Below, in pieces: positions 47,441-64,000 of a DNA stretch of 64,000 nt. Location of the stretch: positions 1,649 to 65,648 of the forward strand of contig JBHJHI010000057.1 in NCBI GenBank assembly GCA_050330995.1, written 5' to 3'. Source of the stretch: Paracoccaceae bacterium. GTDB taxonomy: Bacteria > Pseudomonadota > Alphaproteobacteria > Rhodobacterales > Rhodobacteraceae. Within the stretch, counting starts at the first letter, position 1, and each line of letters begins with the position of its first letter. The position numbers and the translations under genes are program-made. The notes under the pieces were generated by a model. It worked only from the letters and a program-made list of their open reading frames with translations. It was not told the origin of the DNA and ran no database searches.

Positions 47441-48364
47441 TCAGGACCGCCGGTCGACCACGAAGGCCGCCGCTGCCGCCAGCAGGTCCGCCGCCTCGCC
47501 GAACGGCGCGAGCGCGGCCGTCGCCTCCGTCACCAGCGCCTCGGCCCGTGCCCGCGCGCCGTCGACGCCGAGGATGTCGACGAAGGTGGCCTTGCCCGCC
47601 GCCTCGTCCTTGCCGACGCGCTTGCCGGTCTCGGCCTCCGAGCCGGTGACGTCGAGCAGGTCGTCGGCGATCTGGAAGGCTTCGCCGAGCGCGCGGGCAT
47701 AGGCGCGCACCGCCTCGACGCTCGCCGCGTCGGCCTCGGCCAGGATCGCGCCCGCCTCGGCCGAGACCTCAAGAAGCGCCCCGGTCTTCATCGCCTGCAG
47801 CCGCTTGACCGCGCGCGCGTCGAGCCGGGCGCCGTCGGCCTCGGCCGCGAGGTCGAGCGCCTGGCCGCCGACCATGCCGCGCGCGCCGGACGCCTGGGCG
47901 AGGCGCAGGCAGAGCCCGGCGCGCACCGCGGGGTTCGGGTGGGTCGCCGGATCGGCCAGGATCTCGAAGGCGATCGTCTGCAACGCGTCGCCGGCCAGCA
48001 CCGCCGTCGCCTCGTCCCAGACGCGGTGGACCGTCGGCTTGCCGCGGCGCAGGTCGTCGTCGTCCATGCAGGGCAGGTCGTCGTGGACGAGGCTGTAGGC
48101 GTGCAGCGCTTCCATCGCGGCGCCCGCGCGCACCGCGCGATCGGTCGGCGCGCCGAGCATCCGCGCGGTCTCGGTGGCGAGGAAGGCGCGAAGCCGCTTG
48201 CCCCCGCCGAGGGTGGCGTAGCGCATGGCCTCGGTGAGCGCGGCCTCGCCCGGCGAGCCGCCCCCGTGGGGGAGCAGGTCGTCGAGCGCCGCCTCCGTCA
48301 TCGACGCGTGCGCCGCGAGGGCGCGCGTGAAGTCGAGCGCGGGCGCGCCGGTCGTCTCCGTCAT
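47441..48364 (-). CDS. ispA: Polyprenyl (farnesyl) diphosphate synthase
   Basis: GGKRLR, HAYSLVHDDLPCMDDDDLRRGKPT (FARM), GQALD, KTGAL, FQIADD, GKRVGKD. Confidence 0.9.
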   Translation of the reverse strand: MTETTGAPALDFTRALAAHASMTEAALDDLLPHGGGSPGEAALTEAMRYATLGGGKRLRAFLATETARMLGAPTDRAVRAGAAMEALHAYSLVHDDLPCMDDDDLRRGKPTVHRVWDEATAVLAGDALQTIAFEILADPATHPNPAVRAGLCLRLAQASGARGMVGGQALDLAAEADGARLDARAVKRLQAMKTGALLEVSAEAGAILAEADAASVEAVRAYARALGEAFQIADDLLDVTGSEAETGKRVGKDEAAGKATFVDILGVDGARARAEALVTEATAALAPFGEAADLLAAAAAFVVDRRS

Positions 48365-49113
48365 TGCCCCTCGTCGTCGAAGATGTCGGGCGCGGCCGCG
48401 TCCTCGCCGCCGATCAGCGCCTGGCGCCGTTGCAGATAGACCGAGCGCAGCGTCACGTAGCTGTCCGGACTCTCGTAGAGCAGCTCGTCGATCAGGTCGA
48501 AGTTCTCGTCGCGCTGGTCCACGTTGTCGGTGACGGTGATGATCGGGCCGATGTTCGAGAGCGCGTCCGTCTCCAGAAGGCCGACATAGGTCGTGGGCGT
48601 GAGGCCGGTGTCGACGGCGAAGCCCGCGAGCGCGCGCGGGGAGGACGGCCCGAGCAGCGGCAGCACCAGATAGGGCCCCTGCGCCACGCCGTACTTGCCG
48701 AGCGTGACGCCGAAGTCGGTCGGCTCGTGCGGCAGCCCGAACTCGGTCGCCGGGTCGAGCAGCCCGCCCGCGCCCATCGCGGTGTTGAGCGTGAAGCGCC
48801 CGAGCGTGCGCAGCGCCATGCGCCCCTCGCCCTGGAACAAGTAGTTCGCGAAGTCGGCCGGCAGCTCCAGATGGTCGAGCCCGTTGCCGACGATGTGCTG
48901 GATCGGCCCGTAGGCGATCACGTCGTAGGCCTGCGCCGCCGGGCGCAGCACGTAGCTGTCGAGCCCGACGTTGAAGGAATGGAACACGCGGTTGGTGTCC
49001 TCGTAGGGGTCCTGCGCCGCGAAGCCGCCGCTCCCGTCGTCGGTGGACGCGCAGGCGCCGAGCGCGGCGGCCAACAGCAGCGCGCCCGTCCGGCGCAAGG
49101 TCGTCGCGATCAT
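48361..49113 (-). CDS. vacJ: VacJ/MlaA-family outer-membrane lipoprotein
   Basis: Lipobox LGAC; DPYEDTNR, RFTLNT, GLLDPA, DFGVTLG, YLVLPLLGPS, YVTLRSVYLQRR. Confidence 0.9.
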   Translation of the reverse strand: MIATTLRRTGALLLAAALGACASTDDGSGGFAAQDPYEDTNRVFHSFNVGLDSYVLRPAAQAYDVIAYGPIQHIVGNGLDHLELPADFANYLFQGEGRMALRTLGRFTLNTAMGAGGLLDPATEFGLPHEPTDFGVTLGKYGVAQGPYLVLPLLGPSSPRALAGFAVDTGLTPTTYVGLLETDALSNIGPIITVTDNVDQRDENFDLIDELLYESPDSYVTLRSVYLQRRQALIGGEDAAAPDIFDDEGQ

Positions 49114-49285
49114 GATATCGAGGTCCCGATCTCTGAAGCCGTGTGCCGCACGGGACTTTCGGCCCCGGACGCATACCCTCGCGGTTGGCCCGCGGCGCGC
49201 GCGACGTTAGCGTGCGCGCGCTGCGGCAAGCAAGCGCAGGGACGGCGCGGGACCAGCCCCTCCCGCCCGATCGAACGGGGGAGCG

Positions 49286-51868
49286 ATGCAGAAACGCCCC
49301 GCGGCCACCGCGAGGCCGGGGGCGCTCGACCGCGGGACCGCCGCGCTCGCCCGGGCGGCCTGGCGCGCGCCGCGCCTCGCGCTCGGCCTCCTCGCCGCGC
49401 TGGCGCTGCTCGCCGCCCTCGCGGCGACGCGGCTCGGCATCGACACCGACAGCAGCCGGATGCTCGACCCCGGACTGCCCTTCCAGGAGCGCGCGCAGGC
49501 GATCAACGCCGCCTTCCCCGCGATCAAGAACACGCTCCTGGTGGTGCTGCGCGGCGAGCACGCCGACGCCGTCGACGCCGCGACCGCGCGCCTGGCCGCG
49601 GCGATCGAGGGGCGCGAGGCGATAGAGAGCGTGTTCGCGCCGTCCGCGAACGACTTCCTGATCGCGCACGGGCTCCTCTACGAGGATCTCGCCACCGTCG
49701 AGGACCGGCTCGACCGGCTGGCGCAGTCCTCGAACCTGCTCGCGGAGCTTCGCGCGAACCGCGACCTCGAAGGCTTCCTGACCGCGCTCGACCGCGCGCT
49801 GGTCCTGATCGACGGCGCCGGTGCCGACGTCGCCGAGCTGGGGCCGCTGATGGCCGAGGCGGCGCGGAGCGTCGAGGCCGCTGCCGAGGGCCGCGCCCGC
49901 CCGCTCGACTGGTCCGGCGTGGTCGGCGAGGCGGGGCAGGGGCTCACCACCCGCGTGATCACCGTCGAGCCGGTGCTGGACTACACCAGGCTCAACCCCG
50001 CCCGCGCGGCGATGGAGGCGGTCGAGGCCGAGATCGCGGCGCTGCCCGAGGACGCGACCGCGCTGGTCGAGATCGGCGTCACCGGCGACCCGGCGCTCAG
50101 GGCCGAGGAGCTGGAGAGCGTCACCGCCACGCTGCCGCTCTCGCTCGGGCTGTCACTGGTGCTGGTGGCGGCGATCCTCTGGCTCGCGCTCGGCCGGGTC
50201 GCGCGCGTCGCCGCGGCCCTCGGCGTGGTGCTGGTGACGCTGGTGCTGACGACCGGCTTCGCGGCGCTCGCGGTCGGGGCGCTCAACCTGATCTCGGTCG
50301 CCTTCGTGGTGCTGATGGTCGGGCTCGGCGTCGATTTCGCGATCCACCTGCTGCTCCATCTCGACGAGGACGCGGGCCGCGGCCTCGGCCCAGCCGCCGC
50401 GCTCGACGCGACCACGGGCAGCATCGGCGCGGCGCTCGCGCTTTCGGCGGCGACCACCGCGCTCGCCTTCCTCGCCTTCGCCACCACCGATTTCGTCGGC
50501 ATGGCCCAGCTCGGGCTGATCGGCGCGGCCGGGGTCCTCCTGGCGCTTCTGGTGGCGCTGACGCTGATCCCGGCGCTCGCGGCGCTGTTCCCCGGCCTCC
50601 TGCGCGGCGCGGGACCCCTCGCGGTCCCCCGGCTCGGGCCTCGCGCGGCGCGGGCGGGGGCGGGGCTCGCGCTCCTCGTCGGGCTCGGCGCGCTCGTCGC
50701 GGCGCCTGCGGCGCGGTTCGACGCCGATCCGATGGCGTTGCGCGATGCCGACGCGCGCGCGGTCACGGTCTACGGCTGGCTGACCGAGGACCCGGTGCTG
50801 GCGCCCCTGCGCCTCAGCGTCCTGGCCGAGAGCCGCGAGACGGCCGCCGCCGTGGACGAGGCGGCCGAGGCGCTGGCGCCGGTCGCGCGCGCGGTCCGGC
50901 TCGACGATCTCGTGCCCGACGACCAGCTCGCCAAGCTCGACGCGATCGACTTCGCCTACCCGTCGATCGAGTACGCGCTTGAGGGGGAGCCGGTCGCGCT
51001 CGCCGAGCCGCCGGAGGGCGACATCGCCGACCGGCGCGACACGCTCGACGTGGACGGCGCGCGGGCGCTGGCCGCGGCGCTCCGGGACTGGCGCGAGGCG
51101 GCGGGCGGGCTCGACGAGGCCGCGCTCGGGGACGCGCTGTTTCGCTTCTTCCCGATGCTGCTCGACCGCCTCGCGCTCCAGCTCGATGCGGGCGAGGTGA
51201 CGGTGGACGACCTGCCCGAGCCGCTGGCCGAGCGCTACCGGACCGAAGACGGGCTCCTGCGCGTCGAGATCGCCGCGACGGGCGATCTGACCGACCCCGA
51301 GACGCGGCGCGCCTTCGTCGAGGCGGTCGAGGGCGCGATCCCGGAGGCCGGCGGGCCACCCGCGCAGATCGTCGGCGCCGCGGACTCGGTCGCGGGGGCA
51401 GTGACGCAGGCGCTCGCCCTCGCCGCGCTCGCGGTCGTCGTGCTCGGCTGGATCGTGCTGCGCTCGGGGCTCGCCGTGGCGGCGGTGCTGGTGCCCCTCG
51501 CGCTCGCGGGCGTCGTCACCATGGCCGCGAGCGCGCTCCTCGGCGTGCCGTTCAACTACGCCAACGTGATCGTGCTGCCGCTGATGATCGGCATCGGCGT
51601 CGACGCCGGCATCCACCTCGCCGTGCGCGCCGGGCAGCACGGCGCGGGCGGCGTGTTCGCGACCTCGACGCCGCGCGCGGCGCTCGCGAGCGCGCTCACC
51701 ACCATCGCCGCCTTCGGCACGCTGGCGCTCTCGGACCATCGCGGCACCGCGAGCATGGGCATCATGCTGGTCGTCGCGCTGGTCGCGAGCCTTACCATGA
51801 CCTTCGCCCTCACCCCGGTCATCGCCCAGTGGCGGGGCCGCGTCCGACAGACGGAGACCGTTCGATGA
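49286..51868 (+). CDS. hpnN: Hopanoid-associated MMPL/RND transporter
   Basis: Two-repeat MMPL architecture; GLGVDFAIH and GIGVDAGIH motifs; FNYANVIVLPL; hopanoid cluster context. Confidence 0.85.
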   Translation: MQKRPAATARPGALDRGTAALARAAWRAPRLALGLLAALALLAALAATRLGIDTDSSRMLDPGLPFQERAQAINAAFPAIKNTLLVVLRGEHADAVDAATARLAAAIEGREAIESVFAPSANDFLIAHGLLYEDLATVEDRLDRLAQSSNLLAELRANRDLEGFLTALDRALVLIDGAGADVAELGPLMAEAARSVEAAAEGRARPLDWSGVVGEAGQGLTTRVITVEPVLDYTRLNPARAAMEAVEAEIAALPEDATALVEIGVTGDPALRAEELESVTATLPLSLGLSLVLVAAILWLALGRVARVAAALGVVLVTLVLTTGFAALAVGALNLISVAFVVLMVGLGVDFAIHLLLHLDEDAGRGLGPAAALDATTGSIGAALALSAATTALAFLAFATTDFVGMAQLGLIGAAGVLLALLVALTLIPALAALFPGLLRGAGPLAVPRLGPRAARAGAGLALLVGLGALVAAPAARFDADPMALRDADARAVTVYGWLTEDPVLAPLRLSVLAESRETAAAVDEAAEALAPVARAVRLDDLVPDDQLAKLDAIDFAYPSIEYALEGEPVALAEPPEGDIADRRDTLDVDGARALAAALRDWREAAGGLDEAALGDALFRFFPMLLDRLALQLDAGEVTVDDLPEPLAERYRTEDGLLRVEIAATGDLTDPETRRAFVEAVEGAIPEAGGPPAQIVGAADSVAGAVTQALALAALAVVVLGWIVLRSGLAVAAVLVPLALAGVVTMAASALLGVPFNYANVIVLPLMIGIGVDAGIHLAVRAGQHGAGGVFATSTPRAALASALTTIAAFGTLALSDHRGTASMGIMLVVALVASLTMTFALTPVIAQWRGRVRQTETVR

Positions 51869-52437
51869 CGACCCTCGCCCGCCTGAGCCTCGCCGCCGCC
51901 CTCGCGCTCGGCCCCCTCGCCGCGCCCGCCGCCGAGCCGGAGGCCGCCAAGGAGGCCGTGCGCGGCCTCGTCACCGAGGCGCACGAGGCGCTGAGCGGCG
52001 CCGGCGACGTCGATCGGCTGCGCGCGGCGATCGAGCGGGGCTTCGCGCTCGACCTCTGGGGGCGCTACCTGCTGACGGATGTCGAGGACCAGCTCTCCGA
52101 GGAGCAGAAGACGACGGTCGAGGGGCTGCTGCCGGGCTTTCTCGCCGATCTCTACCGCGACCAGTTCGCGCGCGGGCTCGACGAGCCGCCGAGCCTCGGC
52201 GAGGTCGAGGCCCTGCGCCGCGACGACGTGATGGTCGACGTCGTGTTCCCGCGTCCGGGCGGCAAGCGGCTGCCGACCGACATGCGGGTGCGCCCGATCG
52301 ACGGCGAGCCCAAGGTGATCGACATCATGGTGGGCGGCGCCTCGTTCCTCAGGCTGAAGCGCGACGAGTTCGCCCAGATCGTGCGCGACGGCGGGCCCGA
52401 CGCGCTGATCGCGCACCTGCGCGAGAACGGGGTCTGA
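51865..52437 (+). CDS. hpnM: Ttg2D/MlaC-like periplasmic lipid shuttle (HpnM-like)
   Basis: Signal peptide; KVIDIMVGGASFLRLKRDEFAQI...LIAHL C-terminal MlaC motif; ATGA overlap with hpnN. Confidence 0.75.
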   Translation: MTTLARLSLAAALALGPLAAPAAEPEAAKEAVRGLVTEAHEALSGAGDVDRLRAAIERGFALDLWGRYLLTDVEDQLSEEQKTTVEGLLPGFLADLYRDQFARGLDEPPSLGEVEALRRDDVMVDVVFPRPGGKRLPTDMRVRPIDGEPKVIDIMVGGASFLRLKRDEFAQIVRDGGPDALIAHLRENGV

Positions 52438-52598
52438 CGGCGCCCGCCCCCCGCTTTCGGCGAGAAGGCAACACCGCACGGCCTCTCGCGCCGCCCCGGT
52501 GACGGAGCCCCCGTGACGCGGCGCGCACGATCGTTATGTGTCGCCGAAGCCCCCCTGCGCCGACGCCGCGCGCCGATATCACGTCAGGAGACGACCCC

Positions 52599-53723
52599 GT
52601 GGCCATCCCCTTCCGTCAGCAGATGCGCGTCGCGAGCTACATCCTCGGCCAGAAGCTGAGGGGCAACCGGCGCTACCCGCTCGTGCTGATGCTGGAGCCT
52701 CTGTTCAAGTGCAATCTCGCCTGTCCGGGCTGCGGCAAGATCGATTACCCCGAGCTGATCCTGCGCCGGCGTCTCAGCGCGCAGGAGTGCTGGGACGCGG
52801 CCGAGGAGTGCGGCGCGCCCATGGTCGCCATCCCCGGCGGCGAGCCGCTGATCCACAAGGAGATCGGCGAGATCGTGCGCGGCCTGGTCGAGCGGCGCTT
52901 CTACGTCTCGCTCTGCACCAACGCGCTGCTTCTGGAGAAGAAGCTGCACCTGTTCGAGCCGTCGCCTTATCTGTTCTTCTCGGTCCATCTCGACGGCCTG
53001 AAGGAGCGCCACGACGAGGCGGTGGACCAGAAGGGCGTCTACGCGCGCGCGCTGAAGGCGATCAGAGCGGCGCAGGACAAGGGGTTCTCGGTCAACGTCA
53101 ACGCCACGATCTTCGAGGGTCACCCGGCAGAGGAGCTGGCCGACTACCTCGACATGGCCACGTCCATGGGCGTCGGCATCTCGATCTCGCCGGGCTTCGC
53201 CTACGAGCGCGCGCCCGACCAGGAGCACTTTCTCAATCGCCGACGCACCAAGGAATTTTTCCGCGACGTGTTCCGCATCGGCAAGGAGCGGGGCTCCAAG
53301 TGGTCGCTCAGCCACTCGCCCCTGTTCCTCGACTTCCTGCTCGGCAACCAGGAAATGCGCTGCACGCCCTGGGGCATGCCGACGCGCAACGTGTTCGGCT
53401 GGCAGAAGCCCTGCTACCTGCTCGGCGAGGGCTACGCGCGGTCCTACCGCGAACTGATCGAGACCACCGACTGGGACCTCTACGGCACCGGCAACTACGA
53501 GAAGTGCCACGACTGCATGGCCCACTGCGGCTACGAGCCGACCGCGGCCAACATCGCCTTCGCCAATCCCCTCAAGATGCTGAAGCTCGCGTTCACGGGC
53601 CTGCGCACCGAGGGGCCGATGGCCGAGGAGATCGATCTCTCGAACGCCCGCCCGGCCGAAGAGCACCACGAGCGGATCGTCGCCGAGGAGATGGCCAAGG
53701 CTCGGCGCATCGCCGCGGAGTGA
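52599..53723 (+). CDS. hpnH: Adenosyl-hopene transferase (radical SAM)
   Basis: YPLVLMLEPLFKCNLACPGCGK CxxxCxxC, GGEPL, CTPWG, CMAHCGYEP; AGGAG RBS with GTG start. Confidence 0.93.
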   Translation: MAIPFRQQMRVASYILGQKLRGNRRYPLVLMLEPLFKCNLACPGCGKIDYPELILRRRLSAQECWDAAEECGAPMVAIPGGEPLIHKEIGEIVRGLVERRFYVSLCTNALLLEKKLHLFEPSPYLFFSVHLDGLKERHDEAVDQKGVYARALKAIRAAQDKGFSVNVNATIFEGHPAEELADYLDMATSMGVGISISPGFAYERAPDQEHFLNRRRTKEFFRDVFRIGKERGSKWSLSHSPLFLDFLLGNQEMRCTPWGMPTRNVFGWQKPCYLLGEGYARSYRELIETTDWDLYGTGNYEKCHDCMAHCGYEPTAANIAFANPLKMLKLAFTGLRTEGPMAEEIDLSNARPAEEHHERIVAEEMAKARRIAAE

Positions 53724-53761
53724 GAGGCGTCATCCGAGCGATCGTCCGCGCTGCGGCATAG

Positions 53762-53800
53762 GGAGCGGCCCGCCTTCCGGGAAAGGCGCTGCCGCTCTCT
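53762..53800 (+). terminator. Hairpin after hpnH
   Basis: GAGCGGC...CGCCTT-loop-AAGGCG...GCCGCTC interrupted stem, followed by a pyrimidine run. Confidence 0.4.
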
Positions 53801-53855
53801 CCAGTGCCCTCAAGTAAAGTTATCTACAACTCAAATTAGAGATCTCAAGTAACTG

Positions 53856-53879
53856 CGCAACTTTAGCAGGAAAGTTGCG
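53856..53879. promoter_or_regulatory. Palindromic operator candidate upstream of the VPLPA-CTERM gene
   Basis: Perfect CGCAACTTT-N6-AAAGTTGCG dyad inside an AT-rich tract. Confidence 0.5.
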
Positions 53880-54083
53880 AAATAGAGGATTTTTTCTGAT
53901 TTATCGGGAACCGGTCGAACCGCTTTCGGTTACCGGTCCGTCGACACACGAAGTGGATCTCGTGCTTCGGCGGTATGAGGACTGGTAGAACCGAAATGGC
54001 TGGACTCTTGAGCCGGGGGCGGATCTGCCGACCGATCGGGTAGGGTGTATGTTCCAGTCGTTTTATCCAGAGGGAAGACGGTA

Positions 54084-54629
54084 ATGAAGCAACTTCTTCT
54101 TGGTTTTGTGATCACGACCGCGCTGGGGTGGCAGGCCTCGGCGGCACCGATCTCGCCCGGTGGTATGCTGGACACGTCGGACTTCACGCCGCCGGCAGGC
54201 ACCTTCGACGGGGCGCTCGATCCGGGCGAGAGCTTCACGTTCCTGATCGAGCCGACCGAAATGCTGATCTTCGACGGCTCGGTCGCCGGCACCGGCGACC
54301 GCAGCGACCTCGACCTCGTCGAGATCACCGTCAACGGCAATCCGACCTCGATGTTCGAGACGATCGAGGCCGACGACCCCGACCCGGTCACGATGCTCGA
54401 TCCGGGCACCGGCACCGGCTCGTTCCTGATCGAGCAGTTCATGGCCGACGGGAACTTCGGCATCGTGGTCGCGCTGCCGTCCGGTGCGACCGATCCCGTG
54501 TCCATCGCGTTCTCGGGCGAGGGGAGCGCTATCTCGCCGGTCCCGCTGCCGGCCGCGGCGTGGTTCCTGATCAGCGGCATCGCGGGGCTCGGTGCGATGC
54601 GCTATCGCCAGCGCGCGACGCAGGCCTGA
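54084..54629 (+). CDS. VPLPA-CTERM (exosortase target) surface protein
   Basis: N-terminal signal peptide; C-terminal VPLPAAAWFLISGIAGLGAMRYRQR (motif, TM helix, basic tail). Confidence 0.9.
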   Translation: MKQLLLGFVITTALGWQASAAPISPGGMLDTSDFTPPAGTFDGALDPGESFTFLIEPTEMLIFDGSVAGTGDRSDLDLVEITVNGNPTSMFETIEADDPDPVTMLDPGTGTGSFLIEQFMADGNFGIVVALPSGATDPVSIAFSGEGSAISPVPLPAAAWFLISGIAGLGAMRYRQRATQA

Positions 54630-54778
54630 CACCTGCCTACGGGGGGCGGCCCCGCGTCGCCCTCACGCAATGTTTCAGCGCCTTGTGCCCCGCCGCCTCG
54701 TCTGACGACATGATGGCGACGCGACGCCGACAGATGGGCGGGCCCGGCCCGTCCGAACCCGAAGACGGGAGAGCCCCC

Positions 54779-55066
54779 ATGAAGCTCACCGACACCCAGA
54801 TCGCCACCGCCCGCGACGCCTTCGGCGCGGAGCCGCTCGAAGCCGAGCACCCGGTCGTGCCTCAGCTCACCGAGGCCTTCGGCGACCACACCATCTACGT
54901 CGACCAGAACGGCCTTCTGGTGTTCCTCGACCCCGAGACCGAGCTGCAGGAGATCGCCGGCCAGCCGAAGCTCGTGCTGATCGCGGCCTGGACCGACGAG
55001 AACAAGAACGCGCTCGGCAAGGTCGAGCCGGTCGACACCGGCATGACGCTGCCCGAGGCGGCGTGA
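54779..55066 (+). CDS. Small acidic conserved hypothetical protein
   Basis: GGGAGAG RBS; HPVVPQLTEAFGDHT motif; own terminator. Confidence 0.7.
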   Translation: MKLTDTQIATARDAFGAEPLEAEHPVVPQLTEAFGDHTIYVDQNGLLVFLDPETELQEIAGQPKLVLIAAWTDENKNALGKVEPVDTGMTLPEAA

Positions 55067-55098
55067 TCCGACGCTCCATCGGGAGCCCGCCGACGACG

Positions 55099-55151: not shown

Positions 55152-55886
55152 TCAGGGACGCTCGTCGAGCAGGGCGACCAGCGCCGGTGCCGCGCGCGCG
55201 AGCGCGGCGAGGGCACGGCGGCTGTCGCGACCGGCGCGCAGCAGCGCCGGCAGATCGCCCGGGCGATGCACGAGGCCCGTGAGCACACGGCCGATCCGAG
55301 GCCGGCCGTCGGCGCCGACAGCCTCGGCGGCGAGCCGGGGCAGGGCGGTCGCCGCCTCGTCGCCGATCACGCGGAGCACGCCCGCGCGAGCCCCGCATGC
55401 CGCGGCCGCCCGTGCGACGGCGTGGCTCTCCATGTCGACCGCCACGGCGTCGTGCCGGGCCGCGAGGGCGCGCTTCTCCCCCGGCCCGGCCGCGACGCGG
55501 TCGAGGCCGAGCAGCCGGCCCGACGCCACGCCCCCGCCGAGCCGCGCGCGCAGCCGTGCCCCTACCTGCGGGTCGAGCGCGACGGCCACGGCGTCCTCGC
55601 CGACGACGACGTCCGGCACCACGAGCGTCCCGGTCGCGAGCGCCGGGTCGAGCCCGCCCGCGAGACCGACGCTCAGGATCAGCGGACACCCGGACGCCGC
55701 CATCGCCGCCGCCGCCTCGGCCGCCCGCGCCGCGCTCGCGCCGCTGACGGCGACGCGGACGCTAGGGCCGCCCGGCACGCCGAGCGCATCCCGTTCCATC
55801 GCGAGGCCGCAGACGATGCCGAGCCGGAGCGCTCCGGACGCCGGGCCGGGGCGGAGCGCGCCCTGTTCCTCGGCCGCGGACGCCAC
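55152..55886 (-). CDS. hpnG: Adenosylhopane nucleosidase / phosphorylase
   Basis: [30 protein letters not shown] (PNP/UDP phosphorylase fold); directly after shc. Confidence 0.85.
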   Translation of the reverse strand: MASAAEEQGALRPGPASGALRLGIVCGLAMERDALGVPGGPSVRVAVSGASAARAAEAAAAMAASGCPLILSVGLAGGLDPALATGTLVVPDVVVGEDAVAVALDPQVGARLRARLGGGVASGRLLGLDRVAAGPGEKRALAARHDAVAVDMESHAVARAAAACGARAGVLRVIGDEAATALPRLAAEAVGADGRPRIGRVLTGLVHRPGDLPALLRAGRDSRRALAALARAAPALVALLDERP

Positions 55887-55894: not shown

Positions 55895-57898
55895 TCAGAT
55901 CCCCCAGCCGACCTCGCGGTCGTTCGAGGCCATGAGCTTCTCGTAGCGCCCCATCGCCCAGAGCGGGAAGAACGCCGCGTAGCCATGGTACTTGAGGTAG
56001 AACACCTTGGGAAAGCCGGTGCCGGTGAAGTGCGGCTCGTGCCAGCGCGGCCCCGAGCCCTCGCGCGGTGCGGTCGCGAGCCAGTCGATGCCGCGCCGCG
56101 TCGCGGCGTCCTCGACCTCGCCGGCCGACATCAGCCCGAGCAGCGCCCAGGCGGTCTGCGACGGCGTCGAGGCCTGATCGAAGCCCTCGCCCACGCCCTC
56201 GTAGCTCTCGAGCCCCTCGCCCCAGCCGCCGTCCGGGCGCTGGTGGGCCTTCAGCCACGCGACCGCGCGGCGGACGTACGGCGCCTGCATGTCCTCGCCC
56301 GCGCCCTTGAGCGCGACCAGCGCCGACCAGGTGCCATAGACGTAGTTCGCGCCCCAGCGGCCGTACCACGAGCCGTCGGGCTCCTGCTCGGCGCGGATGA
56401 AGTCGATGCCGCGGCGGATGTTGTCGGCGTAGGTGACCGGGTCGATCTGCGCGAGCGCGCCGACGCAGCGCGCGGTGACGTCGACCGTCGGCGGGTCGAG
56501 CAGCGCGCCGTGGTCGGCGAAGGGGATCGAATTCAGGTAGTAGTGCTCGTTCTCCGGGTCGAAGGCGCCCCAGCCGCCCGAGCGCGACTGCATCCCCGCG
56601 AGCCACTCGCAGCCGCGCTCGATGTTGAGCGCGTAGCGCTCGGGGTCGCAGCGATGCATCGCCATCACCACCACGGCGCTGTCGTCCACGTCCGGGTAAT
56701 CGGGGTTCTCGTACTGGAAGGCCCAGCCGCCCGGCCGCAGGCCGGGGCGGCGCACCGCCCAGTCGCCGACGTGGTCGAGGATCTGCTTGTCGGCCAGCCA
56801 GTCGAGCATGTGGCGAAGCCGCGGGTCCTCGCGCTCGCCGGCCTCCATCATCGCGTGCGCGGCGAGCGCGCTGTCCCAGACCGGCGAGAGGCAGGGCTGG
56901 AAGTAGAGCTGCTCGCCGCGCTCGGTCATCAGCTTCTCGACCGCCCCGCGCGCCGTCAGCATCTCGGGGCTGTCGTCGGCGTAGCCGAGCACGCGCAGCG
57001 CCATCACCGCGTTCGCCATCGCCGGGTAGATCGCGCCGAGCCCGTCGTCGCCGTTGAGGCGCGCGAGGGTGAACGCCTCCGCCTTGCGGATCGCGCGCTC
57101 GCGCGTGCCGCGCGGGAAGAACGGCTCGGCGTGCTGGAGCGCGCGGTCGAGAAGGAGGAACATCTCGCCGATGCGCGAGCCCGTCGGGTTGATCTGCCAG
57201 ACGCGCTGCGCCTCGGGCGCCACCGTGAACAGCTCGCGGATGGTGCGCCCCGTGGGGTTCTGGGCCTTCGCGCGCTTGGCGTAGAGGATCAGGAGCGGCG
57301 TCAGCACCGTGCGCGACCAGTAGGCGATCTTCGACATGTGGAACGGGAACCATTCCGGCATGAGGATCGCCTCGACCGGGATGCAGGGCATGCCCCGCCA
57401 CGGGATCTCGCGGTAGAGCGCCATCATGATGCGCGTGAAGACGTTGGCCTTGGCCGCGCCGCCCTGGCGCAGGATCCAGCGCCGGGCGCGCGCCATGTGC
57501 TCGGCGTCCGGGTCGTCGCCGATCAGCTTCAGCGCCCAGTAGCCCTTCACGCTCGCCGAGACGTTGCCGCGGCCCTCGTGGAACAGGGGCCACGAGCCGT
57601 CGGCGTTCTGCACCGAGCGGATGTACTTGGCGATGCGCGCCTCGCGGGGCGCGTCGATCTCGCCGAGGAAGTGGCGCAGCAGCACGTACTCGGCCGGGAT
57701 GGTGCAATCGGCCTCCAGCTCGAACACGAGGTGGCCGTCGCCCTTCTGCATCGCCCAGAGCTTGTCGGACTGGCGCTCGATCAGCCGCAGACGGCTCTGG
57801 CGCTCGTCGCGCTCGCTCGGGGTCGCGCCGAAGGGGTCCGGTCCCGGCACGGCCTCCGCGCCTTCGAGATCCCAGTCGGCTCCGGCCGTTCTCTTCAT
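55895..57898 (-). CDS. shc: Squalene-hopene cyclase
   Basis: ELEADCTIPAEY, SPVWDSAL, GGWAFQY, DVDDSA (DXDD), QW repeats, GTGFPKVFYLKYHGY. Confidence 0.97.
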   Translation of the reverse strand: MKRTAGADWDLEGAEAVPGPDPFGATPSERDERQSRLRLIERQSDKLWAMQKGDGHLVFELEADCTIPAEYVLLRHFLGEIDAPREARIAKYIRSVQNADGSWPLFHEGRGNVSASVKGYWALKLIGDDPDAEHMARARRWILRQGGAAKANVFTRIMMALYREIPWRGMPCIPVEAILMPEWFPFHMSKIAYWSRTVLTPLLILYAKRAKAQNPTGRTIRELFTVAPEAQRVWQINPTGSRIGEMFLLLDRALQHAEPFFPRGTRERAIRKAEAFTLARLNGDDGLGAIYPAMANAVMALRVLGYADDSPEMLTARGAVEKLMTERGEQLYFQPCLSPVWDSALAAHAMMEAGEREDPRLRHMLDWLADKQILDHVGDWAVRRPGLRPGGWAFQYENPDYPDVDDSAVVVMAMHRCDPERYALNIERGCEWLAGMQSRSGGWGAFDPENEHYYLNSIPFADHGALLDPPTVDVTARCVGALAQIDPVTYADNIRRGIDFIRAEQEPDGSWYGRWGANYVYGTWSALVALKGAGEDMQAPYVRRAVAWLKAHQRPDGGWGEGLESYEGVGEGFDQASTPSQTAWALLGLMSAGEVEDAATRRGIDWLATAPREGSGPRWHEPHFTGTGFPKVFYLKYHGYAAFFPLWAMGRYEKLMASNDREVGWGI

Positions 57899-59259
57899 GC
57901 CCGTCCCGTTCGTCTCGCTTGGCGCGTCGTCGATGTGTCGCGAACTGTCGCAGCGGCAATCTCGCCGGAGAGGAGCGCCCCCTCGATGGTGGCCGGCAGG
58001 CCCGTGTCGGTGGCGTCGCCCGCGAGCACGACGTTGGCGAGCCGCGTGCGCGCGCCCGGTCGTCTCGCGATGCCCGCCGGGGATTGATCGAAGGTCGCTC
58101 TCTTCTCCGCGATCAGGCGTGTTGCGATGCGGTCGTTATCCCCCAGCGACAGCGCCGCGCCCACGTCGCGCCACAATCGCGTCGCCACTTCGTCACGCGG
58201 TGTTGCGAGGATGCCGAGTTCGTGCGCCCCGCTGACGGTCACGCTGACCACGTCGCCGCGCACGAACACCCACTGCGCGAGCGCGCCGAGGAGCCCGGTG
58301 ATCGGGGCCGCGCCCTCCAGCCGGCGCGCGTCGCGGACCACGAAGTGCGCGTTCAGGATCGCGCCGTCGTCGGCGGGCGCCTCGATCCCGGGCATCAGCT
58401 TCGCGAGACGCGAGGGCGGCAGCGCCAGCACCAGCGCGTCCTCCGCCCCGAGCGCGATCCGTCGCGCGCCGAGGCTCAGCGCCGTGGCCCGCCGCCCGTC
58501 GTCCTCGATGCCCGAGACGGCCGCGTTAGTCTCGACCCGCGCGCCGAGCGCGGCGAGGCGGGCGAGGGCGGGAGCGACGAAGGCAGCCCCAAGGCCCTTC
58601 GGCGCCAGCATCGGCCGCGCATGCGCCGCGCCTCTCAGGAAGGTCTTGCGCATCACCCGCCAGAGGAGCCGCGCCTGCCCGCGTTCGGGCACGGTGTTGA
58701 GCACCGCGAGCGTCATCGGCTCCCAGAAGCCGCGCCAGAGGGGGCCTCGCCCCCGGATCGCCTCGGCGACCGTCGCGCGCGGGGCCGCGGCGGCGAGGCG
58801 CCAGCCTTCGAGATACTCGCCGAGCGACGTGCCCGGCACCCGGCGCGAGGGGGCGAGCACCCACCAGGGAACCGGCCCGTCCGAGAGCGCGAGCGTGAAG
58901 CGCCGCGCGTCGCCCGTCGCGTCGAGGTCGACCATCGGGAAGTCGGCCTCGTCGAGCGCGACGAGCGCGTCGGCACCGCCCGAGCGCGCGAGATAGCGCG
59001 CGACCGCGTCGTTGCCGGTCAGCACCAGATGGTTGCCGTTGTCGATCTCGCGGTCGAGCGCGCGGTCGTGGAAGGTGCGGCAGCGCCCGCCGGCCTGACC
59101 CGCGGCCTCGTGGACGACCACGCGGTCCCCGGCCTCGGCCAGCGTCAGCGCGGCCGAGAGCCCGGCCATGCCGCCGCCGACGACGTGGACCGTACCGCCA
59201 CGGGGGCCCGTCCCTTCCGCCGCCCCGGCCGGGGCGGGCGCCGTCTGCACGCCGTCCAC
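57895..59259 (-). CDS. hpnE: Hydroxysqualene dehydroxylase (FAD-dependent)
   Basis: VVGGGMAGLSAA, GGRCRT, DNGNHLVL, EKRATF, LAGD-TDTGLPATIEGA. Start codon approximate. Confidence 0.9.
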   Translation of the reverse strand: MDGVQTAPAPAGAAEGTGPRGGTVHVVGGGMAGLSAALTLAEAGDRVVVHEAAGQAGGRCRTFHDRALDREIDNGNHLVLTGNDAVARYLARSGGADALVALDEADFPMVDLDATGDARRFTLALSDGPVPWWVLAPSRRVPGTSLGEYLEGWRLAAAAPRATVAEAIRGRGPLWRGFWEPMTLAVLNTVPERGQARLLWRVMRKTFLRGAAHARPMLAPKGLGAAFVAPALARLAALGARVETNAAVSGIEDDGRRATALSLGARRIALGAEDALVLALPPSRLAKLMPGIEAPADDGAILNAHFVVRDARRLEGAAPITGLLGALAQWVFVRGDVVSVTVSGAHELGILATPRDEVATRLWRDVGAALSLGDNDRIATRLIAEKRATFDQSPAGIARRPGARTRLANVVLAGDATDTGLPATIEGALLSGEIAAATVRDTSTTRQARRTGRA

Positions 59260-59264
59260 GGTCC

Positions 59265-60188
59265 TTACCCCGCGCGGCGGCGGAAGGCGGCGGGATGCGC
59301 CACGGCGGCGAGCGCGGCGGCGAGCTTGGCGGGCTTGGAGAGCCTGACCCGCGGCTCGGGCGCGAAGCCCCGGCCCGCGAGGCGGTTCAGCGTCGCCTCG
59401 TAGACGCCCAGCATCATCAGCGCCGGCATGAGGCGATGGCGGGAATGGGCGGGCAGCGCCGCGCGTGCGGCGTCGAACTCGGCGCGCGCGAGGCGGGCGA
59501 GGTCGCGCGACAGCGCCGGCAGTCGCGGATGACGGGCGACGGCGGCGGGATCGGGGGGGATGGCGTGGTGCTCCAGCATCTCGGCGGGCAGATAGAGCCG
59601 ACCCCGCTCCGCGTCCTCCGCCACGTCGCGCAGAATGTTGGTCAGTTGCAGCGCGTCGGCGAGCGCCAGGGCGAAGCGCTCGGACACCGCGCCCCGCCAG
59701 GCGCCGAAGATCCGCATCGACAGACAGCCGATCGTGCCGGCGACGCGGCGCGTGTAGGCGCGGAGATCCGCCATCGGCGGCGCGACCACCGGGCCGGTCG
59801 CGTCGATCTCCATGCCCTCGATCAGGAGCAGGAACTCGCGCCTCGGCAGGGCGAAGGCCGCGACCGGGCCGTCGAGCGCGCGCCCGATCGCCGAGCGGGC
59901 GCGGCCCTCGTAGAGCGCGTCGATCTCGTCGCGCCAAGCGGCGAGCAACCGGGCGCGGACGTTCTCGTCCATCGGCTCGTCGGCGACGTCGTCGATCACG
60001 CGGGCGAAGGCGTAGAGCGCCCACATCCCCTCGCGACGCGCCTTCGGCAGCGCGCGCATGCCGGGGCCGAACGACGAGCCGGCCGCGCGCGTGATCGCCG
60101 CCGCCCGCGCACGCGCGTCGCCCTCGAAGGGCAGCGGCGCCAGGGGCGCGAGCGCGGTCGGCCAGCCGCCGTCGAGGCGTTGCAGCAT
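59265..60188 (-). CDS. hpnD: Presqualene diphosphate synthase
   Basis: GSSFGPGM, FARVIDDVAD, GMEID, YTRRVAG, LQLTNILRDVAEDA, GRLYLP. Confidence 0.9.
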   Translation of the reverse strand: MLQRLDGGWPTALAPLAPLPFEGDARARAAAITRAAGSSFGPGMRALPKARREGMWALYAFARVIDDVADEPMDENVRARLLAAWRDEIDALYEGRARSAIGRALDGPVAAFALPRREFLLLIEGMEIDATGPVVAPPMADLRAYTRRVAGTIGCLSMRIFGAWRGAVSERFALALADALQLTNILRDVAEDAERGRLYLPAEMLEHHAIPPDPAAVARHPRLPALSRDLARLARAEFDAARAALPAHSRHRLMPALMMLGVYEATLNRLAGRGFAPEPRVRLSKPAKLAAALAAVAHPAAFRRRAG

Positions 60189-61051
60189 CAACCCGGCCTC
60201 GCGAGCCGCGACAGCCCGGCGAACGCGCCGAGGGCGAGATCGAGCGGGCGGTGGCGCACGCGCGTGGCCAGCGGGTCCTCGCGCCTCAGCCGCCGCGCGA
60301 GGCAACGGGCGAGGCGCTGGATCACCGCGACCTCGGCGGCGAGGCGGCGGTCGCGCACCATCGCCGCGAGCGGCGCCGAGCGTTCGAGCAGCCGGTCGGT
60401 GCGGTCGAGGCAGGCGTCGATCGCGCGGCGCAGCCCCGGCGAAGCGCTCGGCGCGTCGAGCGCGGTCTCGTCGATCCCGGCTTCGGCCATGATCGAGGCG
60501 GGCAGGTAGACCCGGTCCAGCCGCTCGCGGTCGGGGCGCAGGTCCTGGAGGTGGTTGAGCACCTGGAGTGCCGCGCAGAGCGCGTCGCCCGGCCCTTCCG
60601 TCGCCCGGTCCTCGCCGTGCAGGCGCAGGAGATAGCGCCCGACCGGATGGGCCGAATGGGCGCAGTAGTCCAGCAGTTCGTCCCAATCGGCGTAGCGCGC
60701 CTTCAGCGCGTCCTGCCGGAAGGCGACGAGCAGGTCGGTGGCGCACTCGACCGGAATCCCGGTCTCGGCGAGCGAGGCGCCGAGGCGGCGCGCGATCGCC
60801 GGCCCGCCGCGGCCGGTGCGCAACGCCGCCCCGCAGGCGTCCAGGCGGCGGACCTTCTCCTCCGGCGCGAGATGCGGGTCGTCGGCGATGTCGTCGGTGG
60901 CGCGCGCGAAGGCGTAGTAGGCCATGACGTGCAGCCGAAGGCGCCGCGCGATTAGGCGCGAGGCGACGGGGAAGTTCTCGTCACCCGCCCCCTTGCCCGA
61001 GGGCGCGAGCAGCGCGTCGTCCTCGCGCTCGGTCGCGATCTCGGCGGTCAT
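60188..61051 (-). CDS. hpnC: Hydroxysqualene synthase
   Basis: ENFPVAS, FARATDDIAD, AFRQD, YCAHSAHPVGR, LQVLNHLQD, DRVYLP. Confidence 0.92.
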   Translation of the reverse strand: MTAEIATEREDDALLAPSGKGAGDENFPVASRLIARRLRLHVMAYYAFARATDDIADDPHLAPEEKVRRLDACGAALRTGRGGPAIARRLGASLAETGIPVECATDLLVAFRQDALKARYADWDELLDYCAHSAHPVGRYLLRLHGEDRATEGPGDALCAALQVLNHLQDLRPDRERLDRVYLPASIMAEAGIDETALDAPSASPGLRRAIDACLDRTDRLLERSAPLAAMVRDRRLAAEVAVIQRLARCLARRLRREDPLATRVRHRPLDLALGAFAGLSRLARPG

Positions 61052-61240
61052 GCGCGGGCTCTCCCGTGATTGGTGCGGTGCGACACTAGGCACGCGGCCC
61101 GAGCCTGTCCACGCCGCGCCGTCGGGATGGGCGCATCGCCGCGGCCTGCCCGTGGCGCCGCCGCGACGCTGCCGCTCCGGGCGGCGCGGTCGTCGTCCGG
61201 ACGCTTGCCGAGGCGGCGGACGGGACATAGGCGCTCGGCC

Positions 61241-62401
61241 ATGCTCGCGCTCGCCGTCGTCTCGCTCCTGATCTGGCTCGCGCTCCTGACGCTGCATCGC
61301 GGCTTCTGGCGCGCCGACGTCCGGCTGCCGGCCCGCCCTCGGCCCGCGCGGGCCGAAGGCGTGGTCGCCGTGATCCCCGCGCGCGACGAGGCGGCCTCGA
61401 TCGGCACCGTGCTCGCGGCGCACGCGGCGAGCGACTATCCGGGCGCCTTCTCGGTGGTGGTGGTCGACGACGGCTCGCGCGACGCGACGCGGGCGATCGC
61501 CGGGGACCGCGCCGCCGGGTCGGCGCGCCGCATCGAGGTCGTCGCCGGGACCGCGCTGCCGCGCGGCTGGTCGGGCAAGCTCTGGGCGGTGGCGCAGGGG
61601 ATCGAGGCGGCCGGGCGGGTCGCCCCGCAGGCGCGCTGGCTCCTGCTCACCGACGCCGACATCGTCCACGCGCCCTCGACCCTCTCGCGCCTCGTGGCGA
61701 CGGCCGAGGCGGAGGGGCGGGTGCTGGTCTCGCTGATGGCGCGGCTCGACACCGGCGGCGGCGCCCTCGGCCGGCTGCTGGGCGGGGCTTACGTCTTCTT
61801 CTTCCAGAAGCTCTACCCGTTCCGCGCGGTGGCCGACCCGCGCTCGCGCGTCGCCGGGGCGGCGGGCGGCTGCGTGCTGGTCGAGCGCGCCGCGCTCGAG
61901 GCGGCCGGGGGGATCGGGGCGATCCGCGGCGCGCTGATCGACGATTGCGCGCTGGCGGCGGCGGTCAAGAAGGTGCGGCCGGACGGGCTCTGGCTCGGCC
62001 TCGCCGCCACCGAGGTCCGGTCGCTGCGCGACACCGGCCGGCTCGCCACGATCTGGGAGACGGTCGCGCGCACCGCCTTCGCCCAACTTCGCCGCTCGTA
62101 CGCGCTGGTCGCGCTCTCGACGCTCGCCATGGCGCTCGTCTACCTCGTGCCGCCCACGGCGACGCTCGCGGGGCTCGCCGCCGGGGCGCCCGCGACGGCC
62201 GTGGCCGGCGTCGCTGGCTGGATCGCGATGGCCGCGGCCTTCCGCCCGACGCTCGCGCTCTACGGCGGCTCGCGCGCGCTGGGGCTCGCGCTGCCGCTGG
62301 CGGCGGCGGTCTACATGGCGATGACCCTCGACAGCGCGCGGCGCAGTCTGGTCGGGCGCGGCGGGCCGTGGAAGGGGCGGACCTACGCCGACCTCGGCTG
62401 A
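61241..62401 (+). CDS. hpnB: Hopanoid-associated GT2 glycosyltransferase
   Basis: VIPARDEA, VDDGSRD, GWSGKLWA, TDADI, FFQKLYPF, AAGGC, IDDCALA, WKGR. Confidence 0.85.
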   Translation: MLALAVVSLLIWLALLTLHRGFWRADVRLPARPRPARAEGVVAVIPARDEAASIGTVLAAHAASDYPGAFSVVVVDDGSRDATRAIAGDRAAGSARRIEVVAGTALPRGWSGKLWAVAQGIEAAGRVAPQARWLLLTDADIVHAPSTLSRLVATAEAEGRVLVSLMARLDTGGGALGRLLGGAYVFFFQKLYPFRAVADPRSRVAGAAGGCVLVERAALEAAGGIGAIRGALIDDCALAAAVKKVRPDGLWLGLAATEVRSLRDTGRLATIWETVARTAFAQLRRSYALVALSTLAMALVYLVPPTATLAGLAAGAPATAVAGVAGWIAMAAAFRPTLALYGGSRALGLALPLAAAVYMAMTLDSARRSLVGRGGPWKGRTYADLG

Positions 62402-63429
62402 GCGGCGACCGGGTAGAGGCGCGCGTGCAGCGGCGCCTTCGGGCGCAGCCGCAGCCGATCCTCGGCCGCGTACCACAACAGCGCCTCGGCGAGGGCGTCG
62501 TCGATGCCCGGCGGCGCCCAGCCGTGCGCGCGCCGCGCGAGGCGGGGATCGAAGCGCGGCGCGATCGCGGCGAGGCGCACGCCGGTCAGCGGCGCGCTCG
62601 GTGCGCGGCGGACATACGTCGCCACCGTCTCCTCCGCGCGGGCGAAGGCGAGAGCGAGGCGCGCCGGCACCCGGCCCGTCGCCGGCCGCCGCGCGGTGAG
62701 CGCCGCGACGCGCGCGGCGAGGTCGTGCAGCCCGACGCTCTCGCCGCTCAGCAGGTAGCGCCGGCCCGGCCGGCCGTGGTCGAGCGCGGCGAGGATGCCG
62801 CCCGCCAGAGCACGCACGTCGACGAGATCGATCACGCTGTCCATCAGCGCCGGCACCCGGCCGCGCGCGAGGTCCAGGAGCAGCCGTCCGGGCGGCGTCG
62901 GGCTCGCGTCGCCGGGACCGACGGGGGCCGAGGGCAGCACCGAGAGGGCGTGGGTCCCCGCCTCGGCCGCCCGCTCGACCGCGATCTCGGCGGCGCGCTT
63001 CGAGGCGGGGTAGGGGCCGGTCAGCCGATCGGGCGGGTGGACCTCGCCCTCCGTCAGCCAGGCGCCGTGCGGGCAGTCGGCCGCGACCAGCGTGGTGTAG
63101 GACGAGACCAGCACGAAGCGCGCGCCCGCCGCCCAGGCGGCGTCGAGCGCGATCTCGGTGCCCTCGCGGTTGATCGCGTCGTGCGCGCCCGGGCGCTCGG
63201 CCCAGAGATCGGCGATCGCGGCGGCGTGGATCACCGCGTCGCAGCCCTCGGCGGCCGCGCGCATCGCGCCACGGTCGGTGACGGTGGCGCGCCGGCGCTC
63301 GGCGGCGTCGGGAAAGCCGGGCGCGAAGGCGAGGTCGAGCCCTACCGCCGCGTCGCCGCGCGCGAGCAGAGCGGCGACGAGGTGGCGGCCGAGGAAGCCG
63401 TCGGCGCCGGTGACGAGCACGCGCCTCAT
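62383..63429 (-). CDS. hpnA: NAD-dependent epimerase/dehydratase (HpnA-like)
   Basis: VTGADGFLG, YPASK (YxxxK), PVGPGD--PTPPG, VDVRALAGG, GRRYLLSG; hopanoid cluster context. Confidence 0.7.
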   Translation of the reverse strand: MRRVLVTGADGFLGRHLVAALLARGDAAVGLDLAFAPGFPDAAERRRATVTDRGAMRAAAEGCDAVIHAAAIADLWAERPGAHDAINREGTEIALDAAWAAGARFVLVSSYTTLVAADCPHGAWLTEGEVHPPDRLTGPYPASKRAAEIAVERAAEAGTHALSVLPSAPVGPGDASPTPPGRLLLDLARGRVPALMDSVIDLVDVRALAGGILAALDHGRPGRRYLLSGESVGLHDLAARVAALTARRPATGRVPARLALAFARAEETVATYVRRAPSAPLTGVRLAAIAPRFDPRLARRAHGWAPPGIDDALAEALLWYAAEDRLRLRPKAPLHARLYPVAAQPRSA

Positions 63430-63998
63430 GAGCCGCACACCAGCAGGCCGGCGGCGTAGGCCGAGCCCGCGATCAGCGCGCCCTCGTGCCAGATCGCGAC
63501 CGAGGCCCCGGAGAACAGCTCGCCGAGCGGGTCGTCGAACAGGACCTCCACCCGCTCGGTCTCCGGCGTCACCGCGACGATGCGCGAGGGGGCGCGGTCG
63601 ACGTAGCCGAGGGTGTAGAGCCAGTAGTCGAACAGATCCGGGTGCAGCGCCGCGATCAGGCTGCCGCGCGGGCCGGGCGTGAGGTTGTCGGGCCCGCCCG
63701 GCAGCTCGACGCTCTCGCCCGAGGCCGCGTCGGTCAGGCGCTCGCCCCGCGTCTCGGCCACGACGATCCGCCCGCGGTCGAGGTCGAGGCCGTTGGCGAA
63801 GGCGAGCCCATCGGCCAGCTCGCGCGCGCCGCGCGCCCCCACGGTGACGATGCTGCCGGTCTCGCTCCCGAGCACGAGGTCGCGCCAGGACGCGGTGCAG
63901 TCGGCGCGGTCGCGGCTGGCCAGGAGATCGGCGCCGCGCCAGAGCAGGTCGTTGGCACGGCAGGCGTCCGGCTCGGCCCATCGCCCTTCCGGCGTGAA
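63426..63998 (-). CDS. Paraoxonase/strictosidine-synthase-like six-bladed beta-propeller (5'-partial)
   Basis: ANDL, GLAFANGL, AETRG, LPGGPDNL, ALHP, GELFSGASVA, GSAY blade motifs; ATGA overlap with hpnA; the ORF runs off the window edge. Confidence 0.65.
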   Translation of the reverse strand, partial: FTPEGRWAEPDACRANDLLWRGADLLASRDRADCTASWRDLVLGSETGSIVTVGARGARELADGLAFANGLDLDRGRIVVAETRGERLTDAASGESVELPGGPDNLTPGPRGSLIAALHPDLFDYWLYTLGYVDRAPSRIVAVTPETERVEVLFDDPLGELFSGASVAIWHEGALIAGSAYAAGLLVCGS

Positions 63999-64000
63999 GC

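Follow-up and report, generated by a model that had tools for sequence, protein, structure and literature searches.

Few molecular fossils are as abundant as the hopanes, and little is firmly established about where they come from in the sea. The Rhodobacterales are dominant marine heterotrophs and, to our knowledge, they have been assumed not to produce hopanoids. A stretch of 64,000 nucleotides from a genome labelled Paracoccaceae bacterium (GenBank assembly GCA_050330995.1, contig JBHJHI010000057.1, positions 1,649 to 65,648), hereafter referred to as the window, carries a large hopanoid biosynthesis and export cluster near its right-hand end. The locus raises the question of whether the cluster truly belongs to a member of this order, how the lineage came by it, and which lipids it would make. 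We find that the trait is ancestral to its clade, that it was probably retained and not gained, that it was later exported to another order, and that it is accompanied by an uncharacterised sulfotransferase-propeller-HpnA module. Members of the clade have been recovered from the sediment of mangroves and tidal flats, from the surfaces of invertebrates, and from biofilms. A coastal and benthic lineage of Rhodobacterales with a complete cluster is a small but real candidate for a marine hopanoid source, and the clade is a useful case for estimating how frequently the hopanoid trait is lost.

The cluster and its host

The source genome is a metagenome-assembled genome (MAG) of 4.02 Mb in 122 contigs, with a guanine plus cytosine (GC) content of 73.1%, a completeness of 94.8%, and a contamination of 0.53%. 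The parent contig (C57) is 72 kb long and the window lies on it at an offset of 1648. In GTDB, the genome shares its genus with Thermohalobaculum xanthum and T. (Limibaculum) sediminis. When species-representative genomes were scanned for squalene-hopene cyclase (SHC), about 36 loci showed 73-88% identity to the window SHC, and the closest named carriers are Limibaculum sediminis FT325 (81%), Thermohalobaculum xanthum M0105 (78%), and Paralimibaculum aggregatum NKW23 (76%), all three of which are Paracoccaceae of the Rhodobacterales in the NCBI taxonomy. The SHC of G016 matches that of T. xanthum exactly, and the SHC of G331 that of L. sediminis; both of these genomes are assigned to the same genus as the window genome (G denotes genome handles, L locus handles, and f-numbers GTDB family codes). 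A motif search of the MAG recovered neither rpoB nor rpoC nor tuf; GyrB was used as the marker, with ParE as the second. Between the window genome and T. xanthum, GyrB identity is 80%; it is 68-71% with further genera of the same family and does not exceed 68% with other orders. In the GyrB tree, the window genome falls within the Rhodobacterales (100/100) and within the family (99/97), and it groups with T. xanthum and L. sediminis (100/99). The host is therefore an uncultured member of the Thermohalobaculum group. The original prediction of a Rhodobacterales genome, made from the sequence alone, is correct, and the host does not come from one of the orders that typically produce hopanoids.

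A binning error, in which the contig and its cluster would not derive from a Rhodobacterales organism at all, is highly improbable. The suspicion is fed by a MAG of 122 contigs in which those three marker motifs are not recognisable, and by some related MAGs that carry absurd labels (Bacillaceae, Mycobacteriaceae, and Anaerolineae). However, the cultured type strains M0105, FT325, and NKW23 carry the cluster. The full gene order stands on contigs of 1.07 Mb in M0105 and 0.82 Mb in FT325; NKW23 has the half from the sulfotransferase gene to hpnG, and the propeller gene and hpnH were not detected in its locus. The cluster also recurs in 22 of 24 congeneric genomes, the contamination of the MAG is low, and the GC content is 73% in both window and genome. 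Since isolate genomes carry the same cluster, mis-binning of the MAG was rejected.

Because the window has a GC content of 73%, genes were called by codon-usage scoring and then scanned with the NCBIfam and Pfam profiles; scores are given in bits, and a value in brackets after a score, or following "vs", is the curated NCBIfam cut-off. All twelve genes that had been named in the original prediction (hpnCDE-shc-hpnG, hpnH, hpnB, hpnA, hpnN, hpnM, vacJ, and ispA) were recovered intact by profile scans and motifs at the coordinates first given for them, and none has an interrupted frame. The core is a tightly packed run on the minus strand, hpnG-shc-hpnE-hpnD-hpnC, in which the contiguous hpnC, hpnD, and hpnE are co-oriented with shc. 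The shc gene (55895-57898, minus strand) scores 740 (431) with TIGR01507, and its product has the DVDDSA protonation motif and at least three QW repeats, as matched by regular expression. It is flanked by hpnG, encoding the adenosylhopane nucleosidase or phosphorylase (55152-55886, minus; TIGR03468 159 (187), the best match; PF01048 56), and by hpnE, encoding hydroxysqualene dehydroxylase (57895-59259, minus; TIGR03467 337 (283)), with a GGGMAG motif. The presqualene diphosphate synthase gene hpnD (59265-60188, minus; TIGR03465 270 (279)) and the squalene synthase (hydroxysqualene synthase) gene hpnC (60188-61051, minus; TIGR03464 264 (250)) follow, and both products have their DxxxD pairs. 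Beyond them lie hpnB, encoding a hopene-associated family 2 glycosyltransferase (61241-62401, plus strand; TIGR03469 441 (379)), and hpnA, encoding a hopanoid-associated short-chain dehydrogenase/reductase with an epimerase/dehydratase fold (62383-63438, minus; TIGR03466 220 (368); PF01370 88).

On the other side of the core, hpnH (52599-53723, plus) encodes the radical S-adenosylmethionine (SAM) adenosyl-hopene transferase (TIGR03470 519 (225)) with a CNLACPGC motif. It is preceded by hpnN, encoding a putative hopanoid transporter of the resistance-nodulation-division (RND) type (49286-51868, plus; TIGR03480 656 (752) over the full length, the best match; NF052374 470), and by hpnM, encoding an MlaC-like periplasmic lipid carrier (51865-52437, plus; TIGR03481 56 (160); Pfam MlaC PF05494 61), which overlaps the hpnN stop by 4 nt. 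The position of hpnN beside hpnM and hpnH fits its assignment, with the score of 656 under the cut-off of 752. The cluster begins with a pair of genes on the minus strand. The mlaA/vacJ-like gene (48361-49113; PF04333 193) encodes an outer-membrane lipoprotein, and its stop overlaps by 4 nt the start of ispA (47441-48364; NF045485 304 (275)), the last gene of the pair, which encodes farnesyl diphosphate synthase with the motifs DDLPCMDDDD and DDLLD and holds the same position in relatives. The mlaA gene adjoins hpnN throughout the clade, and MlaA homologues are also found in hpn loci of Kiloniellales and Sphingomonas. In summary of the scores, SHC, HpnH, HpnE, HpnC, HpnB, and IspA pass their cut-offs, and HpnD falls 8 bits short. 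At the other end, the cluster runs beyond the window for about 1.5 kb on contig C57 and ends with a sulfotransferase gene.

Such clusters are rare in the order. In an even draw of 401 Rhodobacterales genomes from 138 genera, SHC above the cut-off was found in one genus only, that of the window. Within this genus, 22 of 24 other species carry it, and of the two without it, one has a genome that is only 60% complete. Among 401 genomes drawn evenly from the class Alphaproteobacteria, 116 (29%) have SHC. It was not found in the sampled genomes of the sister family f2, nor in six further f2 genomes. A study published in Geobiology in November 2025 (PMC12583986) reports Shc in four Rhodobacterales reference genomes (<1%) and in 3 of 203 genera, namely Limibaculum, Thermohalobaculum, and one Rhodovulum genome, compared with shc in about 30% of Hyphomicrobiales and about 70% of Rhodospirillales. 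The expectation that hopanoid genes are uncommon in the Rhodobacterales is thus borne out by one of 138 sampled genera here and by less than 1% of genomes in that study. The rarity behind the supposed exceptional status of this locus is real, but its novelty is lower than had been assumed, as Table 2 of that study already tabulates shc for Limibaculum and Thermohalobaculum. The hopanoid-gene exception in the Rhodobacterales is already published, and what is new here is its confirmation and detail. One such detail is that T. xanthum M0105 has an intact hpnH (L015, 13300-14430), 87% identical to that of the window, whereas the same table lists none for Thermohalobaculum. As a separate observation, a genome of another Rhodobacteraceae genus (G426, contig C8, 8354-10228) has a 633-aa open reading frame (ORF) that scores 257 bits on the SHC model, below the cut-off, and is 25% identical to the window SHC; it may encode a different triterpene cyclase.

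Age and origin of the cluster

The common ancestor of the Thermohalobaculum/Limibaculum/Paralimibaculum clade already had the cluster. The gene order from the sulfotransferase gene to ispA is kept in about 15 loci, which are all of the related loci that span the region, and the clusters of T. xanthum M0105 and L. sediminis FT325 are identical in gene order to that of the window from the sulfotransferase gene through the mlaA-ispA pair. Relative to these two strains, the window shows 78-81% identity in SHC, 85-87% in HpnH, and 79-80% in GyrB, and with a GC content of 73% against 68-70% it represents a different, uncultured species. Across the clade, SHC is 73-88% and HpnH 77-88% identical to the window proteins. 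The GC content of the cluster is 74%, compared with 73% in the rest of the window, and the SHC and GyrB trees agree within the clade, with the window grouping with T. xanthum and L. sediminis in both. The conserved architecture, the matching GC content, and the agreeing trees together indicate that the cluster is at least as old as the clade. A recent acquisition by the window genome was ruled out by the GC match and the genus-wide synteny. One congener with a complete genome has a decaying cluster (G019, locus L196, contig C2, 379000-398999), in which hpnB is gone, hpnC and hpnD are truncated, and SHC is only 64% identical and sits on a long branch.

The cluster has also left the clade. A MAG named Alphaproteobacteria bacterium bin.9 (G524, contig JANSWW010000001), which GTDB places in another order, carries it at locus L023 (G524:C5, 191-213 kb; also L207 and L208). 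The G524 GyrB is 64% identical to that of the window genome and lies in a distant clade (100/98), and its ParE, encoded on the 544-kb contig that holds the cluster, is 63% identical to the ParE of the window genome, compared with 70-75% within the genus. The SHC of G524 is nevertheless 75% identical to that of the window. In a tree of SHC, HpnH, and HpnN, G524 lies within the genus, as the sister of T. xanthum plus L. sediminis (99), and an approximately unbiased (AU) test rejected the alternative in which the Rhodobacterales sequences are kept together without G524 (p = 7e-5). The block in G524 runs from the sulfotransferase gene to mlaA and lacks hpnB-E and ispA; its flanks are non-syntenic, and cluster and flanks have the same GC content of 65%. 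The cluster was thus transferred from the Thermohalobaculum clade to an alphaproteobacterium of another order, and the equal GC content of cluster and flanks indicates that this transfer is old. A chimeric bin was considered as an explanation for G524 and was ruled out by the ParE on the same contig, the non-syntenic flanks, and the equal GC content.

How the clade itself obtained the cluster is a matter of lineage-specific retention or ancient transfer, a pair of options that had been aptly chosen at the outset and between which the comparison of gene trees with the marker tree leans to the former. We consider it probable that the cluster was inherited vertically from an ancestor shared with neighbouring alphaproteobacterial families and was lost in the sister family and in crown Rhodobacteraceae. 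According to PMC12583986, alphaproteobacterial hpn genes are mostly vertical in inheritance and frequently lost. GyrB makes f2, the second family of the order and one that lacks SHC, the sister of Rhodobacteraceae; inside Rhodobacteraceae, the sister of the Thermohalobaculum genus (94/89) is a clade (100/100) formed by the 11 other genera sampled. As the genus is sister to the remaining sampled members of its family, two losses suffice for retention. The SHC tree nests the clade (100) among alphaproteobacterial SHCs, with f143, f140 (with Hankyongella), f60, and f160 as neighbours at 62-65% identity. In a concatenated tree of HpnC, HpnD, HpnE, HpnH, and HpnB, the clade (100) is sister (99) to a group of f140, f60, and f14, and f160 falls outside. 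The GyrB tree sets f140, f60, and f14 outside a large clade of 23 rows, in an unresolved zone beside the Rhodobacterales, while f160 and f143 lie deep within that large clade. Since f140, f60, and f14 stand beside the Rhodobacterales in both trees, cluster and marker are not in conflict for this lineage.

The alternative, that the stem of the clade gained the whole cluster once by an ancient transfer from another alphaproteobacterial family resembling f140, f143, or f60, that descent within the clade has been vertical ever since, and that earlier Rhodobacterales were free of hopanoids, is less probable. A single gain is more parsimonious than at least two losses, given that SHC occurs in one genus only among the 401 genomes of the order, f2 included. 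The clade also lies five nodes deep in the SHC tree, where f143 (97) is the closest outgroup and f140 with Hankyongella the next, and GyrB sets f143 far from the Rhodobacterales; this discrepancy in f143 implies that transfers among these lineages have occurred. The passage of the same type of cluster to another order in G524 makes an ancient gain mechanistically plausible as well. It counts further against retention that the species tree is represented by one gene, GyrB, whose backbone is unresolved, and that just 11 other genera of Rhodobacteraceae are included in it. On the other hand, the clade is nested in no single family, and its sister group in the five-protein tree also stands beside the Rhodobacterales in GyrB. 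The clade also sits on a long stem branch (0.29), its base composition shows complete amelioration, and the position of the genus as sister to the remaining sampled family keeps the number of required losses small. Vertical retention is therefore favoured only slightly over one ancient gain; the trees lean towards it and do not settle the matter.

The f14 and f60 loci show a further peculiarity of arrangement. In L216, L219, L223, and L224, the hpn cluster has the same order without shc between hpnE and hpnG, and the SHC of these families, a divergent type with about 40% identity to the window SHC, is encoded elsewhere in the genome.

Predicted products and export

The hopanoid pathway of the window is complete and canonical, and it is very probably functional. 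Gene content, intactness, host placement, rarity in the order, conservation within the clade, and tree topologies are observed here; how the enzymes act, which lipids they yield, and in which direction the cluster evolved are inferred, and the pathway is read from the established functions of the protein families. IspA would supply farnesyl diphosphate, from which HpnC, HpnD, and HpnE would form squalene. SHC would cyclise squalene to diploptene and diplopterol. HpnH would add adenosine to give adenosylhopane, and HpnG would remove the adenine to leave ribosylhopane, the precursor of bacteriohopanetetrol. The RND pump HpnN, together with the MlaC-like HpnM and MlaA, would carry hopanoids to the outer membrane. 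Elsewhere in the genome, there is a second short-chain prenyl synthase (contig C41, 41% identical to the ispA product) and a CrtB-like gene.

We expect C30 hopenes without methylation and bacteriohopanetetrol, which may bear a modification not yet described. A genome-wide search of the MAG, which is 94.8% complete, gave six B12-domain matches, of which only one is a B12-radical-SAM ORF, and no match to HpnP or HpnR. This ORF (512 aa, contig C71, ~3002-3202) has its best match, at 90 bits, to a C-methyltransferase subfamily of ribosomally synthesized and post-translationally modified peptides (RiPP), and no match above a cut-off. As the sole B12-radical-SAM candidate for HpnJ, it scores 69 bits vs 578, also genome-wide; hpnI, hpnK, and hpnO were not searched for on that scale. 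Table 2 of PMC12583986 likewise gives no HpnP or HpnR for Limibaculum and Thermohalobaculum. With no HpnP, HpnR, or HpnJ, methylated hopanoids and cyclitol ethers are not expected.

The clusters of Rhodopseudomonas palustris TIE-1 and Zymomonas mobilis have in common with that of the window the hpnCDE-shc-hpnG core, hpnH, hpnA, hpnB, and the putative hpnN (PMC12583986), and no difference in chemistry is predicted as far as ribosylhopane and bacteriohopanetetrol. The SHC is only about 52% similar to that of R. palustris (PMC12583986). The window differs from the canonical clusters in lacking hpnP, hpnR, and hpnJ and in having a dedicated mlaA-ispA pair and a sulfotransferase-propeller-hpnA operon. 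A likeness to the Mla lipid-trafficking system is also evident, as MlaA (PF04333) and the MlaC-fold HpnM (PF05494) flank HpnN, but the cluster contains no MlaFEDB genes, and the genomic context suggests that MlaA and HpnM serve the transport of hopanoids rather than phospholipids.

Several points weigh against so complete a picture. HpnA, HpnG, HpnN, HpnM, and HpnD score under their curated NCBIfam cut-offs, although for the first four these families are the best matches, and the incompleteness of the MAG means that the absence of hpnP, hpnR, and hpnJ is not absolute. The lipid record of the clade consists of polar lipids on thin-layer chromatography (TLC) in species descriptions only (PMC11426391), the description of Paralimibaculum does not mention hopanoids, and no Rhodobacterales were cultured in PMC12583986. 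A cluster that is cryptic or decaying, with hopanoids not produced in meaningful amounts and no relevance to biomarkers, is nonetheless unlikely. The eroded G019 cluster, with its fast-evolving SHC, and L079, which appears degraded in a similar way, show that decay can be found among the relatives, and hopanoid content spans two orders of magnitude among producers (PMC12583986). In the window, however, the twelve genes are intact with their catalytic motifs, and order and sequence are conserved across the clade at the SHC and HpnH identities given above.

A candidate tailoring module and minor features of the locus

The cluster ends with three genes on the minus strand that form a translationally coupled operon, in the order sulfotransferase, propeller, and hpnA, with hpnA last. 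The sulfotransferase gene (~64427-65530; PF13469, Sulfotransfer_3, 91) lies upstream of the propeller gene and outside the window. The propeller gene (63426-64436, of which the window holds the C-terminal part, 63426-64000) encodes a membrane-anchored, paraoxonase-like six-bladed propeller of 336 aa, and its stop overlaps the hpnA start. NCBIfam has no model for either the propeller or the sulfotransferase. The sulfotransferase has one weak sequence match to PDB 2zq5 (E 4e-8), among the mycobacterial Stf-type sulfotransferases. The propeller was modelled through its L014 orthologue (AlphaFold, predicted local distance difference test (pLDDT) score 93), and the model is six-bladed with an N-terminal anchor helix. 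The best Foldseek matches are to serum paraoxonase PON1 (E 4e-19, template-modelling (TM) score 0.73-0.77), the fold being alike (PDB 1v04) at a sequence identity of 19%. The invariant residues E55, N167, N220, and D255-N256 appear to resemble the calcium ligands of PON1, a comparison made by PON1 numbering and not by alignment.

The association of this trio with hopanoid genes extends well beyond the Thermohalobaculum clade, in which it is conserved. Orthologues of the sulfotransferase were found in 17 of 400 sampled genomes of the class; SHC is present in 16 of these 17, against a background of 29%, and 15 orthologues lie beside hpn genes. The 15 are distributed over eight other families (f14, f60, f91, f103, f140, f142, f143, and f160), and in most of them the order sulfotransferase-propeller-hpnA is kept. 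The trio also travelled with shc in the transfer to G524. An adenosine 5'-phosphosulfate (APS) kinase is encoded in the window genome, so that a supply of 3'-phosphoadenosine 5'-phosphosulfate (PAPS) is possible. A literature search for sulfated hopanoids or bacteriohopanes and for a hopanoid sulfotransferase found nothing relevant, and PMC12583986 noticed no further candidate genes near hpn clusters. It is a tentative and rather doubtful reading that the trio constitutes a conserved, undescribed hopanoid tailoring module, which may make a sulfated, perhaps glycosylated, lactone-derived or acid-derived C35 hopanoid. If it is true, this lineage of marine coasts would produce a new polar hopanoid, one that would escape the present screens for bacteriohopanepolyols. 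This module is the most promising thread of the locus, ahead of the taxonomic oddity.

Two small genes, which like the propeller gene had not been named in the original prediction, lie between hpnH and hpnG. The first (54165-54629, plus) encodes a protein with an exosortase-type VPLPA-CTERM sorting signal (TIGR03370 41 at the C-terminus). It has no counterpart in any related locus compared, those of M0105 and FT325 included, and is an insertion specific to the window genome. The second (54779-55066, plus) is a 95-aa ORF whose position is conserved in relatives, with orthologues of 57-62% identity in T. xanthum, L. sediminis, and three MAGs and a copy of 40% identity at L038. This ORF, the propeller, and two ORFs in the gap at 46.3-47.4 kb gave no family match in Pfam or NCBIfam. 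The lowest GC content of the window, 66.5%, is found in the 2-kb bin at 52001-54000, which holds hpnH and lies just upstream of the VPLPA-CTERM gene. Away from the cluster, a 180-aa ORF at 41111-41653 shows weak matches, at 42 bits and far under the cut-off, to the HNH region of the IscB/Cas9d RNA-guided nucleases.

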